Source: Cladosporium halotolerans (Eukaryota). From it: DNA of 64,000 bases. Positions 29,141 to 42,691 of the stretch are shown piece after piece (within the stretch, counting starts at the first letter, position 1; every line of letters begins with the position of its first letter). Below the pieces are notes generated by a model that saw only the letters and a list, made by a program, of their open reading frames with translations, was not told the DNA's origin and searched no databases. The DNA is taken from contig NW_027191510.1 of the NCBI RefSeq assembly GCF_011745625.1, positions 1 through 64,000 of the forward strand, written 5' to 3'. A program made the position numbers and the translations under genes.

Positions 29141-29152
29141 CGGTAAATGTGG
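29141..29152 (+). promoter_or_regulatory. CGG-N5-GTGG element in the divergent ALDH-like/small-gene promoter
   Basis: CGGTAAATGTGG; the same motif recurs in other cluster A promoters. Confidence 0.5.
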
Positions 29153-29331
29153 GAATGGGCCTGAGTTCCGGCGTCCGGAGAGGTGGGGTGGTGGGATCCG
29201 GTGGGTGTCAGCGCTCGGGATTCTGGAAGCAGGACATTGAAACGCGACGGCAGCGATCGCATTCAACGACAGCTTGAGCATCGTCTGATGCGCTATACTC
29301 GTCTACACTGCTCCAACGAAATTCCTTGGAC

Positions 29332-29749
29332 ATGTCTGTAACAACAACAGCCAACGCCCGCATGGTGGCAACCCGGCACTACCTCGCCGACTACGAGCTC
29401 CACCACAGCCAACCCGAGAACCCCATTTCAGCTCCAGCGCCGAATGAACAGAAACCGCTCTCAGAGAATAACCCTCCAGGCTGGGAAGATCAGTGGCGGA
29501 GAGTGCCGGCCTACCGACCAGCTCAGAACCAGCTGGACGAGCAGAGAACAACGTATACCAGCGAGGTCGAAAGGAATTTCGTAAGGGTCATGTTCGGAGG
29601 TACGTGTGATGGAGCGACGATAGAGAGATGGCCGGAGCTGACCGCATACAGGTGTGTCCATGATGGCGTCTGCGAGTCAAATTTGGCGTGCGACTGGTGG
29701 GAGGATTAACAGTGATTTCTTTAAGCACAAGGTTGGCGGAGAGTGGTAA
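29332..29749 (+). CDS. Small hypothetical protein (121 aa); intron 29600-29651
   Basis: GTACGT...CTGAC...CAG intron gives ...FVRVMFGGVSMMASASQIWRATGGRINSDFFKHKVGGEW*; head-to-head with the ALDH-like gene. Confidence 0.8.
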
Positions 29750-29916
29750 TCCAACATCTATGCCTGCGGCCACTGCCACTACCAGCTCCCCTTATCATTT
29801 GCCAATTGTGGAGCATCACACTACCCTTTTGAAGTTCAGCGAATGGCAGACTGATCCTGGGCCTCCCTCCCGTTGCGTTTGGAAGCCGCTCCTGGTTCCA
29901 CAACTGCTGTTTTTCT

Positions 29917-30400
29917 TTGCTGCATCAGCTTTTGCTCGAATCAGACAGTGATGAAAACAGAATTTATCTCAGGCAACTTCTGTTCGGAGCCGACTCTATC
30001 AATGATATCTCGTGCTTCCTGACAGCCCTTGTTTTTGAGTCGGTATGGCTGCCCAACATTGGCTATCCACTTCATGAGCTTCACAGAGAGACGCTCGAAG
30101 ATATCATCCAACACTCAATGAACAGAGAGGACATATGGTCCAAAGCTACGAATCATGAGATGCATCTTTTGATCGAATCTGTCATTGTCGAGGTACGCTA
30201 GAATGCTGTTCATCGTGGCCTCAACAAACCTAATCATCGTCATGATACCACCATCATGAAGCAGCAGGCCCAGAGAGCGACCTTGATGACAATCCCCGTC
30301 GCCACCTCTCTACTTCGGACCTTGGCCACGGGAATCTTTGGCATGAAGATCGGTGAGATCAACGACGGAGAACCAAGGTTCTAGTCTTGCAGACTCGCAC
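29917..30400 (+). pseudogene. Relic of a CorA-like C-terminal domain gene
   Basis: One frame with TAG stops at 30199 and 30382; MKQQAQRATLMTIPVATSLLRTLATGIFGMKIGEINDGEPRF* resembles the fungal CorA-like GIFGMN TM segment. Confidence 0.55.
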
Positions 30401-38768: not shown

Positions 38769-39323
38769 TCACTTCTTCTCGGAAGGCGGAACACCATCCA
38801 TTCCGACACCGTAGTCCTCGCCCAGAGCCTTCCCATCCATCTCGATCGGCTTCGACTCCTGCAAGACGTACATCATGCGTGCCCACCCAGTCGTGCTGAC
38901 GTTCTTCCAAGCATGGTTTGTTCCTCGCTGGATGGCAACATCCCCTCTCCGCATAAGGCGTGTCTCGCCAGAGTCCAGCACGAGCTCCACTTCGCCTTCA
39001 AGCACAACACCATAGTCTAGACTTACAGTGCGATGCATGGGAGATACGGACTGAGGCGGCACGTCGACGAAGCGCAGGACAGTACCGCCGGGGATGACGA
39101 GGCCGGGTGGCGTCTGTAAGTAGCTTTGGTAGACTGATACGTCTTTGTTCTGGTTCATGTCGACCGGGTATTGCTCCGTTGTATATCCGAGACTGAACTT
39201 CGCGCTGTTCGGCAGCGTGTGCCATGAGAGCTGCTCGGGGACGGAGTCGGAGAATGTGGCTTTGCCTTCGGCATTGTGGGTTGTGATGAAGCGGTGGATA
39301 GACGGGAGGCCGTGAGGTTCCAT
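38769..39323 (-). CDS. Cupin-domain protein (184 aa)
   Basis: SPMHRTVSLDYGVVLEGE and GDVAIQRGTNHAW cupin motifs; N-terminal RFITTHN. Confidence 0.92.
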   Translation of the reverse strand: MEPHGLPSIHRFITTHNAEGKATFSDSVPEQLSWHTLPNSAKFSLGYTTEQYPVDMNQNKDVSVYQSYLQTPPGLVIPGGTVLRFVDVPPQSVSPMHRTVSLDYGVVLEGEVELVLDSGETRLMRRGDVAIQRGTNHAWKNVSTTGWARMMYVLQESKPIEMDGKALGEDYGVGMDGVPPSEKK

Positions 39324-39524
39324 GATGGTATGAGATGTCGAACCAAGGTTGTAAGGTATTCGGTTGAGGATGGGATGTATAGTCGATTGATTTAATGGCG
39401 ATTAAATGGTCGGCGTCCCATAGATGTGGAGTACCAGGGAGGAGTAGGCGATGCCGGATGCTGTGTGCGGAATCGGAAGTATGTGGGCGCCAGTCGCTTC
39501 CGGACTCCCGCAGGGCACCTGAAT

Positions 39525-42420
39525 TCACGTCGACAAATTTCCAAGCTCGTCCAACAAGCTTGTCAAGTTCGCGACCAAAGGCGGCAGTCCTCCTTTTGTA
39601 TGGGGATAATTGGTCTTGAAGACGTCCGCTGCGGTCGCCATCAATTCTCGAGACTCGGACAATGAACAAAATTTCTCGGAAGCAGTGCTGGATCGGGCAT
39701 CTGGCATCTCATTCGGCGGTCTGAGCGCCCTTGTCAAACCAGGCGTGCCATGACCAACTTGAATGAACGCCTTGGTAGCTCGGTCCTCCGGCCGGTTTAA
39801 AGGCACCTTGGCCTGGGTGCGCGGCGTCCCCAGTGAGTGCTGTTGTGTCGACAAAGTAACCACGCCGCTATCGACGGGCGTTTGGAGACCGCTCTGTCGA
39901 CTTGTTCCAGATGTCACCATTCCCCAGACCCAGAGTGTCAAGGTTGCGTGGTAGATAGCAACAGCGTAAAAGTCCCTCAGGCGGGTCTTCTCAAAGCGCT
40001 GCGCATGGAAGAAGACTTGTCCAGCGTGCCACACGGCGCGCCGAGACTCTGCGTCTTGTGTCCATGTGCGAACGATCGGGTAAACCCTGCGCGCTTCAAC
40101 TTCACCAGATCTTCCGGCGAAGAGCTGAACATCATCTAATGAGACATGCAGGGACATCATGAGGAACTCCAGTACGAACGAGATCTCGGGTGGTGTGTTC
40201 TCGTCTGTCTCGCAGTGCGTCAGGAAAGTCGTCAAGTCCTCGTATCTAAAGCTGTTAGCGATTGATAAATACTCCCCTGGCATTGAACTTACAGATCACG
40301 CCGTCTGCTCATGTGCGAGAGTCCTCTATCCCTGCGGCGCTTCTCTCCAGAACGCCGAAGAATCTGCGCCTGCTGCCGATACTCAAAGATTTCATGAGCC
40401 AAAGAATGAGCAATCAGCAGCTGACAAAGGCCTTTATCGGTATAGAATTGCACCTTGCCTAGCAGCTCCGGGTCGCCAAATAGTTCGACGAGTGATGGAA
40501 GGTCCTCCCTCGGTGTCGCTTCTTGCGCGAGGAAAGCACTCCTCCAAGCATGCGCATTTGGGGCTTGCCACAGCTCCCGCGAACAGGGTAATGGCAAAAG
40601 CATCTGCGCTGTGGCGATAAGAGGCGCTCTCATGTGGACAAGCATGGTCTGGGAGTCGTGAAGGAATGTGTGAAAGACCAAGCGTTTCCAGCCTTCTTGT
40701 TCTGACCACGTCCGCCATTTGCTCTCCAGTACTTCAGCAGAATCATCTTGGGCGGGATATACTGGCTTATATCGCGTTTTGGAAAAGGCGTTTGACCAGG
40801 CCAGCATGGTGACGGGAGGTTGCAGAAACGATGCGGCGATCTCGGTGGATCTCCGGAAGCCGCTCCAAACCCCGGTGTTGACCCACATCAGACTGGTGGT
40901 AACAGACTGCAGCTCCCTTGTCGTCGAGTTATCTCTCTCAAATTCGGAGGCAATGGCATATCGCACAACTTCTTGTAGAACCATGCCCATCTTCCAAATT
41001 GGTGGAAAGCTCACAAAAGCCGCTCCTCTCGCCGTCAAGGCCAGTAAGAGCTCTGTCCGAATCTTCTGCGGCTCAAAAGTAGGGATGTGAATGTGCGAGT
41101 CGATAGCGTAAGTGTCTTCGAGCAGTGAGACGTCGATCAGGTCCTCCAGAAGCCTTAGAGATGGAAAAGAAGGCATCTTCAGCTTATGTACTGTACATTG
41201 CGTGACGATACGGATCATCTGGTCTCGGTTGTTCTGATCCAAGGAGCAATGAAACACCTGGCGTGCGCCCGGACTGGTCAGCTGGTCGGCCGCATCGACT
41301 CTATCTTGATTAACGTTGAGATCCGCCATGTCTGAGAATGCGCCGACTCCACGTGGTGGTATCCAGCTGTTCCATGACCAAGGGGAGCGCTTAATGGCCT
41401 CGGATCTTGATCCTGCTTCTGAATTGGGCGTCCTGGTCGTCTTCTGCTGGGTTTGCGGCGACTCTATTTGTATGTCATTGAACGGCATGGGAGTCCAAGA
41501 AGCTGGGTTCTCAAGGAAGGAAAAGTCCAAGTCTGTTGCGTCGAAATACATGTCCTGGGTCAGATTTGACACATCCGGAGGTGCAACAATTGACTCGTGA
41601 GTGATACTGTCTCCGGCCCCAAACGGCATCATGATGTGCTCAAAAAATTCCGGGAATGCAGGGTCGAATGTCGAATGCCCGACATTGATTATTGGGTCTT
41701 GCATGAGGGGAGCGGCTACTGGCAGCTGTCCATTGCTTGCAAATGTAGGATCTGTGTGAGCTTCTGCTGCATTATCTGCGGCTTGGAGCCCATCGTAGGG
41801 CGGCAGAGCGAGACTGGTATCATCGTTGCCGTCACGGGCGGTAGAAGCTCTGCGCTCCTGCTCTTGGCGTTGCTCTGTCTCAACACAGGGTACATCTCTA
41901 GCTTTGCAGCGCTGCACCTAATCAGTAAACTTCATTTGATCATACAAAGGGAGTAAGGGAGAGATGCGACGGAAAGGTGAAGTGAATTGCGGTGGGAGAC
42001 TCGAGATCGTGATCGCTTGCGGGTGGAATTGCAGACAGACACGCATCCTCCGAAATAGGTAGAAGCATGCATCCGACACATCAGACAAGACAGGCTTACC
42101 TTGCACGGCCTATCCTCGTCGCACTTGGTCTTCGACTTAATACAAGCCTGACAAGCTTTCTCCGTCCGCCTACGAACCGACCGCTCACCTTGTGCGGCAT
42201 TCTCATGCGAAGATCGATGGCGATTCAGCAAATCAGCGCGGTTGAAACCCTTCCCACAGTCTGAGCACTTGTATGCCCGTTCATTGTCGTGCGACTTGAG
42301 ATGACGATTCAGGTGGTCCACGCGCTCATAGGTCCGATTGCAGACGAAGCATCTGTGTTCCTGTCGCGGTCGCTGCTCGGATGAGCCTTCGTCCGTCACC
42401 GCACTCTCTTCCGTTGCCAT
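39525..42420 (-). CDS. Transcription factor with two C2H2 fingers, a Zn(II)2Cys6 cluster and a fungal TF domain; introns 41912-42099 and 40246-40292
   Basis: CFVC..HLKSH and CSDC..HRSSH fingers; CQACIKSKTKCDEDRPCK|RCKARDVPC after splicing; HIHIPTF middle-homology segment. Confidence 0.92.
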
Positions 42421-42438
42421 GCTAGGTTCGGGCCGGAT

Positions 42439-42691
42439 CGGAGTTGGTGGCGTGTCGTGTGAGCGCGTTGTTCAGTGGCAGTCCCGGATCAATAGAGTAA
42501 GGCGAGCTCCGCGGATGAGTGCATCGCACAATTTGGACCTTTGCAAGCCGTCAGATGGGATCCGATGGAGCAACACCACGCTACGGTTGAGGGCGAATGT
42601 AAGACGGTGGCAGTGTCGACCTCGGCTGCGGTACATGTGGATGTGGAGGGCTTGCTGAAGCGGGGGCTCGGAAATCACCCCACGACAGCCG
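42439..42691. promoter_or_regulatory. Three CGG-N5-GTGG elements upstream of the C2H2/Zn2Cys6 gene (42439-42450, 42629-42640, 42680-42691 on minus)
   Basis: CGGAGTTGGTGG, CGGTACATGTGG, CCACGACAGCCG. Confidence 0.5.

Follow-up and report, generated by a model that had tools for sequence, protein, structure and literature searches.

A conserved CGG-spacer-GTGG element in the promoters of a fungal catabolic cluster family and its probable reader, a C2H2-Zn2Cys6 regulator

A stretch of 64,000 nucleotides from Cladosporium halotolerans (contig NW_027191510.1, positions 1 to 64,000; hereafter the window) carries, at ~27-54 kb, a gene cluster that is probably devoted to the breakdown of aromatic compounds. 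Its promoters share a composite element, CGG followed after a spacer of k bases (Nk) by GTGG, which is almost certainly a genuine and conserved sequence feature. In the form CGG-N(3-6, mode 5)-GTGGRN it would represent a conserved cis-regulatory element of a whole fungal catabolic cluster family, and the regulator encoded in the cluster, a dual-domain protein with two C2H2 fingers and a Zn2Cys6 domain, is likely to read both halves jointly with some freedom of spacing. The cluster falls into two halves, A and B, with a tRNA gene between them, and the copies and variants in its promoters are as follows.

29141..29152, plus strand: exact N5 copy, divergent promoter of an aldehyde dehydrogenase (ALDH)-like gene and a small open reading frame (ORF)
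29176..29186, plus strand: N4 variant, same divergent promoter region
32978..32989, minus strand: exact N5 copy, divergent promoter of the monooxygenase and CocE genes
35338..35349, minus strand: exact N5 copy, LigB promoter
35422..35433, plus strand: near copy with TGG replacing CGG, LigB promoter
38611..38622, plus strand: exact N5 copy, MFS transporter promoter
39455..39466, plus strand: near copy with GTGT replacing GTGG, cupin promoter
39474..39486, plus strand: N6 variant, cupin promoter
42439..42450, plus strand: exact N5 copy, 19 bp upstream of the regulator start codon (ATG)
42629..42640, plus strand: exact N5 copy, regulator promoter
42680..42691, minus strand: exact N5 copy, regulator promoter
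46005..46016, minus strand: exact N5 copy, upstream of the gene for a Zn2Cys6-only protein
50411..50421, plus strand: N4 copy, divergent promoter of the second CocE gene (CocE2) and the second MFS gene (MFS2)
52961..52972, plus strand: exact N5 copy, promoter of the fumarylacetoacetase-family (FAH) gene

The six exact and four near copies listed in an earlier, sequence-only reading of the window are all present with the positions, strands and readings it gave. Its list was nevertheless incomplete, the exact copies at 35338, 46005 and 52961 having been overlooked, and its restriction of the element to cluster A was too narrow, as the FAH and MFS2 promoters also hold conserved sites. The whole window contains 15 exact CGG-N5-GTGG copies, including those that lie outside these promoters or in coding DNA.

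The upstream DNA of cluster A, taken as six ATG-bounded regions totalling 2,642 bp, contains seven exact copies spread over five of the six regions, and the other spacers from N0 to N12 are represented there by 0-3 copies each. Dinucleotide shuffles of the same DNA gave a mean of 0.44 copies and, in 3,000, never more than 4, while the genome background (266 kb; 0.26/kb overall and 0.19/kb in non-coding DNA) leads to an expectation of 0.5-0.7 copies (P ~1e-5 to 1e-6), where the sequence-only reading had set six copies against ~0.5. Its caveat that the motif had been chosen post hoc was apt: when the best CGG/CCG-Nk-4mer was re-picked in length-matched random non-coding sets, 9 of 400 equalled it (p ~0.02), so that the window by itself is only suggestive. 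It is these random sets that speak for a chance pattern picked after the fact, an explanation rendered extremely unlikely by the top rank of the element in held-out loci, its replication in a paralogous cluster and its positional conservation.

The held-out loci came from a metagenome scan with alignment of the regulator N-terminus (best 80 of 85 confirmed), and the 80 loci collapse to 56 groups at 90% identity. Upstream DNA was defined as <=700 bp before the first aligned codon of every homologous gene, giving 114 merged intervals (72.6 kb, 54 loci), which may contain leaders, introns and some unaligned coding DNA. An independent set comprises 26 loci lying >0.5 substitutions/site from one another and from the window on the regulator tree, where the position of short loci rests on little data. 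Over the 114 intervals, CGG-Nk-GTGG with k from 0 to 15 occurs 7, 15, 13, 33, 54, 70, 32, 32, 20, 24, 23, 21, 21, 17, 21 and 7 times, and the three other arrangements of the two half-sites show no comparable peak. When 188,555 gapped 3+4-mer keys were ranked de novo in the 26 independent loci, CGG-N5-GTGG came first (28 copies against 5.8 expected, in 13 of the 26). The counts there for N3 to N7 are 22, 14, 28, 18 and 12, each against 5.75 from half-site densities; their sum is 94 against 28.8 expected, compared with 37, 45 and 33 for the other three arrangements. Approached from either half the result is the same pair: at 3-7 nt behind CGG no 4-mer ranks above GTGG, and at 3-7 nt ahead of GTGG no 3-mer ranks above CGG. 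N5 copies reach 0.96/kb in cluster upstream DNA versus 0.18/kb in the remaining non-coding DNA of these contigs, an N3-7 site is present in 99 of the 114 upstream intervals versus 44-68 for control arrangements, and the element accompanies the regulator across differing gene neighbourhoods.

A paralogous cluster in the same genome (G000:C317:1-15000; L101, L102) encodes a monooxygenase, two PhyH proteins, its own dual-domain factor, a CocE hydrolase and an MFS transporter. Its four promoters, bounded by ATG and stop with boundaries set after the sites were known, hold 8 N5 sites in 2,637 bp against 0.68 expected. Because both the held-out loci and this paralogous cluster reproduce it, the enrichment is solid, and an excess over background, which the sequence-only reading had named as a check, is found in all three settings. 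In the paralogous promoter between the monooxygenase and PhyH genes, two N5 composites also stand back to back on either side of a CCG-N2-CGG centre (L101 ~1431-1456), a symmetric layout that could seat two molecules; no fixed geometry between neighbouring composites, as a dimer rule would produce, was evident in 10-bp bins.

The same counts bear on the idea that each domain has sites of its own, whereby the regulator would bind separate GTGGRN boxes and CGG-based sites, and their closeness would only reflect dense clusters of sites. Half-sites are abundant, the counts from N8 to N20 stay somewhat raised (mean 8.5 against 5.75), and according to the accessible text of PMC5415576 loss of the fingers merely reduced the function of Cmr1p. 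The N5 peak, however, appears in one of the four arrangements under a null that preserves half-site densities, and at several positions both halves are conserved together at constant spacing, which leaves this idea very unlikely.

Conservation in homologous promoters, the second check that had been named, was found for the regulator, FAH and MFS2 genes. At the FAH-promoter site (52961) the TCGGA and GTGG columns are invariant in 7/7 sequences and form an island in otherwise divergent DNA, and both halves of the MFS2-promoter N4 site (50411) align in 5/5 sequences. The ATG-proximal N5 site of the regulator (42439), probably located inside its 5' leader, aligns across 11 sequences, namely the window and 10 relatives. 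Sites in the regulator's own upstream region, which the sequence-only reading had noted, recur in relatives: 27/53 of these have an N5 site ahead of the regulator gene, as do 11/26 independent loci, versus ~10% expected, and 23/26 independent loci have an N3-7 site there. The 42629 site agrees in order and direction with a conserved N4 site of the relatives, the homology of the site itself being uncertain, and the GTGGGG half of the 42680 site aligns with relatives in which the spacer is N4, N6 or N7 and both halves also match the CreA consensus. Elsewhere in cluster A, the intergenic region of the 29141 site has an equally oriented composite in relatives, with N6 (L013) or N3 (L012, L015, L024); an exact N5 site upstream of LigB in L037 has the same sense as the 35422 near copy; L037 and L039 carry N4 sites in the same direction as the 38611 site, in MFS promoters that align poorly; and N6 sites in L037 and L039, with an N4 site in L033, share the direction of the 39474 site. 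Regulator relatives of clade IV (L026, L062, L058, L049, L043) have no recognised cluster gene nearby, yet carry N3-N7 composites upstream of themselves.

The spacer of the element is flexible in these sequences, in that N3-N6 occur and N5 is the commonest. After homologous sites were collapsed, N3 to N7 number 26, 28, 44, 24 and 21 against a baseline of 16, with the mode at N5. In clade II regulator promoters, five loci have N4 and three have N5 at one site, and seven have N3 and one has N5 at the next, both halves being kept in each case. Clade III has 3 sites at N4/N5 versus 16 at N3/N6/N7 (Fisher P 8e-4). The collapsed counts and the shifts at orthologous sites rule out a fixed N5 spacer, and the fixed spacing assumed by the sequence-only reading has to be given up. 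The variation at the 42680 site was set aside as proof of flexibility, since both halves there also fit CreA. Preferences can be arranged by the length of the linker between fingers and Zn2Cys6 domain (15-17 residues, N4/N5; 21 residues, N5 then N4/N3; 17-30 residues, N3/N6/N7), although a simple rule tying linker length to spacer length is not seen across clades.

The candidate reader has two fingers with the helices RVDHLNR and RADLLNR, a 17-residue linker and then the Zn2Cys6 domain. The six-cysteine cluster of the latter is split by an intron (42099-41912) and is complete after splicing, as it is in homologs; the match of an RNA contig stops at 41913, as expected for the 3' splice site. 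The fungal_trans middle-homology domain follows (PF04082, E 2e-11), homologs carry the same domains, and alignments of 27 and 50 homologs show no variation in the residues with which the two fingers contact bases. By the zinc-finger code, finger 2 (R-1, D2, L3, R6) fits GTG and finger 1 (R-1, D2, H3, R6) fits G(A/G)G. C2H2 fingers run antiparallel to the G-rich strand, and a domain that follows finger 2 is therefore expected 5' of GTG, where CGG lies. The order of CGG before GTGG is thus the order predicted from the layout finger 1, finger 2, Zn2Cys6, and the match between element halves and regulator domains claimed in the sequence-only reading gains from both this polarity and the predicted GTG-G(A/G)G box. 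The observed box is GTGG; a purine usually comes next, and the sixth base is looser than predicted. The CGG half often lies within TCGGA. For the Zymoseptoria homolog P0122, which differs from the window protein itself, an AlphaFold model has confident fingers and zinc cluster, low-confidence linker residues (63-67), and after the zinc cluster only an 8-residue helix instead of a long dimerisation helix; the model agrees with a protein that binds as a monomer through a flexible tether.

In the mechanism proposed here, one regulator molecule would read both halves of the element. Finger 2 would contact GTG and finger 1 the next G(A/G)N, while the Zn2Cys6 domain, C-terminal to the fingers, would read the single CGG on their 5' side, the finger pair thereby substituting for the second CGG that a Gal4-type dimer needs. 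A flexible linker of 15-30 residues may tolerate spacer changes of a few bases, with preferences specific to each clade. The sites upstream of the regulator gene would provide autoregulation, most likely a positive feedback upon induction, and the middle-homology domain may sense a pathway compound as the inducer.

The two halves might instead be bound by two cooperating proteins, a general C2H2 factor (Adr1/AmdX-like or CreA) on GTGG and a Zn2Cys6 domain, belonging to this regulator or another, on CGG. The genome encodes an Adr1/AmdX-like protein with helices RLEHLKR/RRDLLLR, the window cluster includes a Zn2Cys6-only gene, flexible spacing would suit such an arrangement, and at one conserved site of the regulator promoter the sequence can be read as a pair of CreA consensus boxes. 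Yet the CreA variants behind CGG are not enriched (GCGG 26 vs 20.5, CTGG 22 vs 18.6), and N5 still stands at 19 vs 5.0 after all CreA-overlapping sites are dropped; taken together, these two results rule out CreA as the reader of the element overall. A CreA/Mig1 site would accept GCGG or CTGG and have G as its sixth base, whereas the element does neither, the single promoter site that fits two CreA boxes aside. Moreover, the fingers of the regulator are conserved, the polarity matches its domain order, and a pattern search of 25 loci >8 kb, in which introns can hide motifs, returned no genuine second Zn2Cys6 motif but one chance-like match. Binding by two proteins is thus unlikely.

Another possibility is that the element is shared by the whole dual-domain subfamily and is read mainly by a different member, for instance a non-clustered paralog (G000:C317:167422; L086, L099), in which case the cluster factor would contribute control by the inducer. 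This paralog has the same layout and the helices RLDHLSR/RADLLKR, and a Cmr1-like factor shares the contact residues. The element is nonetheless concentrated near clustered regulators and in their own promoters, and no N3-N6 site occurs in the 1.5 kb that precede the non-clustered paralog, so that a main reader outside the cluster appears quite unlikely.

Joint reading by the cluster's own regulator remains the likely interpretation, and a number of observations weigh against it. The main doubt concerns the identity of the reader, because at least 3 other proteins of the same genome, namely the non-clustered dual factor, the Adr1/AmdX-like factor and the Cmr1-like factor, have the same finger contact residues and any of them could read GTGG. 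The 7-base element recurs every 4-5 kb and is for that reason insufficient for specificity on its own. The sixth base is G in only 36/93 sites, unlike the prediction of the finger code. Within the window, cluster B promoters as a set contain 2 copies versus 0.8-1.2 expected and are not enriched, the PhyH1 upstream region has no exact composite, and alignments with relatives are poor for the cupin and MFS promoters. Among the collapsed sites only N5 is strong, N3, N4 and N6 being modest (P 0.004-0.04) and N7 not significant, and in clade III, with 1 N5 site in 12.9 kb, N4 and N5 are not in excess. Lastly, the Poisson P values count related sites as independent, and all loci were retrieved via the regulator and cover only clusters that possess it.

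The genes of the cluster, with the tRNA gene at the junction of its halves, are arranged in the window as follows.

27171..28928, minus strand: ALDH-like gene, divergent; Pfam Aldedh below cut-off, 3' end approximate
29332..29990, plus strand: small conserved spliced gene, family unassigned; spliced RNA contigs, 3' end approximate
30545..32701, minus strand: flavin adenine dinucleotide (FAD) monooxygenase of the aromatic hydroxylase type fused to an acetoacetate-decarboxylase-like domain; domain matches
33193..35044, plus strand: CocE/NonD family hydrolase; domain matches, intron visible in an RNA contig
35529..36474, plus strand: LigB/DODA-type extradiol ring-cleavage dioxygenase; ATG at 35529 or 35540
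36700..38454, minus strand: MFS transporter; 3' end approximate
38769..39323, minus strand: Cupin_2 protein; domain match
39525..42420, minus strand: dual-domain regulator (two C2H2 fingers, Zn2Cys6 and fungal middle-homology domain)
43170-43286, plus strand: tRNA gene with an apparent intron; Rfam match, missed by ARAGORN
43774..45807, minus strand: second regulator, Zn2Cys6 only; domain match
46256..47391, minus strand: PhyH-like dioxygenase (PhyH1), same cluster family
48142..49923, minus strand: second CocE/NonD hydrolase (CocE2); domain match
50566..52247, plus strand: second MFS transporter (MFS2); domain match
53093..54397, plus strand: FAH hydrolase; domain match

Many homologous loci carry both the cluster A genes and genes beyond the tRNA, and the two sets are for this reason regarded as one cluster family. 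The closest named homologs are from Dothideomycetes, e.g. Zymoseptoria, Ramularia and Cercospora. Gene content suggests a pathway that would proceed from aromatic ester or amide hydrolysis through ring hydroxylation and extradiol cleavage to an FAH-type hydrolysis. Plant-metagenome RNA runs contain spliced contigs for the small gene as well as for CocE and MFS; their presence shows that close relatives of these genes are transcribed, apart from any level or condition. The small-share RNA runs served for splice joints only and neither for expression level nor for habitat.

Several features of individual genes may be added. The ALDH-like protein has TSPYAPD at what we take to be the position of the catalytic-cysteine motif, and four relatives likewise lack a cysteine there; it is possible that a pseudo-enzyme has been retained in the cluster. 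Homologs of the small spliced gene stand beside an ALDH-like gene in three distant loci (L013, L015, L024), and its first exon has no match in Pfam, NCBIfam or Atlas. The solved structure nearest to the cluster monooxygenase is a decarboxylative vanillate 1-hydroxylase, and the monooxygenases of homologous loci match only the N-terminal FAD part of the fusion, at ~30% identity. Scans of prokaryote and viral collections with LigB and the regulator gave unrelated or weak matches only; an alphaproteobacterial metagenome-assembled genome (L002) encodes a LigB relative that is 37% identical. Upstream of PhyH1, at 47653-47675, lie short tandem CCGAA units, each with CGG on the minus strand. Outside the cluster, an ORF at 22095-23237 (minus strand) contains a GHRHDWE motif and presumably encodes a look-alike of the NPP1/NLP family of secreted proteins.

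The C2H2 plus Zn2Cys6 factors include melanin regulators of plant pathogens, and the element offers for this class, whose DNA recognition is poorly understood, a specific, oriented and conserved candidate site with natural spacer variants. It would also outline the probable regulon of a catabolic cluster that is widespread but uncharacterised, and unite clusters A and B in one family. In the accessible parts of the two sources concerned, both domain types of Cmr1p are described as important, their cooperation as not demonstrated and recognition by the dual-specificity class as a matter that 'remain obscure' (Shelest 2017, PMC5415576), while a 2021 network resource assigned each domain of the dual factors a matrix of its own and found C2H2 with Zn2Cys6 to be the commonest two-domain type in the two fungi surveyed (PMC8637145). 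A DNA site is given neither in the available portions of a Cmr1 paper from 2024 nor in those of a melanin review from 2025, and no composite site and no report of this cluster was met in the literature searched, a scope that excludes most subscription papers and CIS-BP. The protein architecture and the principle of bipartite recognition are already known, and the composite site is new to the literature searched.

The regulator has the Cmr1/Pig1 architecture, with two N-terminal C2H2 fingers, an intact six-cysteine cluster directly after them and a fungal_trans domain, so that it agrees with the melanin regulators Cmr1p, Pig1p and Amr1 in the order of its N-terminal domains and in its middle-homology domain. 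It differs from them as a separate subfamily tied to a catabolic cluster and not to a melanin polyketide synthase (PKS), and it was rejected as the Cmr1/Pig1 ortholog, a place filled by another gene, which has a PKS and a reductase as its neighbours on G000:C13. This melanin-type locus (G000:C13:304000-328000; L124-L126) comprises the reductase, the Cmr1-like factor and the PKS, with labels inferred from layout and tested only for the PKS SAT domain. Two N5 composites lie ~330 and ~380 bp upstream of its reductase, and the promoters of the PKS and of scytalone dehydratase have none nearby. Clade-dependent spacer use, a Cmr1-like factor with the same contact residues and the N5 sites at the adjoining reductase hint, tentatively and with some doubt, that CGG-N(3-7)-GTGGRN might be a general grammar of the fungal C2H2 plus Zn2Cys6 class, Cmr1/Pig1 included, bound by monomers whose paralogs are separated partly by a spacer preference set by the linker.

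Similar enzyme sets are known from fungal aromatic-catabolism clusters, of which the ARD class of phenylpropanoid-degradation clusters (Gluck-Thaler and Slot, bioRxiv 10.1101/184242) and the gentisate cluster (PMC3914699), as far as the accessible texts go, share with this one a ring-cleavage dioxygenase, a salicylate-hydroxylase-like monooxygenase, an FAH-family hydrolase, an MFS transporter, an aldehyde dehydrogenase and a regulator. The gentisate cluster (Greene 2014, PMC3914699) differs in its gentisate 1,2-dioxygenase, its stilbene dioxygenase and its C6 factor, and LigB goes unmentioned in the part of the article available; given this difference in gene content, an identification of the two was rejected. 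An equation of the cluster with Afu4g01480-01550 proved wrong, since those genes are the gentisate cluster.

With regard to the binding site itself, Gal4-type sites consist of paired CGG at a fixed spacer, and monomeric CGG sites are known for AlcR and Rgt1. The element has the CGG half-site in common with both, yet it appears to differ from Gal4-type sites in combining one CGG with a C2H2 box over a variable spacer, and the homolog model lacks the long dimerisation helix. No paired-CGG key appears among the top 25 de novo keys and CCGG is unenriched 3-7 nt behind CGG, a scan that covered part of the possible pair geometries. On the other side, Adr1 and Mig1-CreA are two-finger proteins of G-rich boxes, and the CreA/Mig1 consensus is SYGGRG. 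Like the regulator and its element, they combine two fingers having Arg at -1 and +6 with a G-rich GTGGR core, and the fingers of Adr1 are sequence relatives of those of the regulator (PDB 2adr), whereas the element has only GTGG, not SYGGRG, as its core and adds an oriented CGG partner.

In the POU, paired-homeodomain and Cut-homeodomain proteins, two domains linked in a single protein together read a bipartite site. Although the regulator is built from other domain classes, in another kingdom, and belongs to none of these families, it would share with them the principle of two domain types joined by a flexible linker that read one composite site with limited freedom of spacing.

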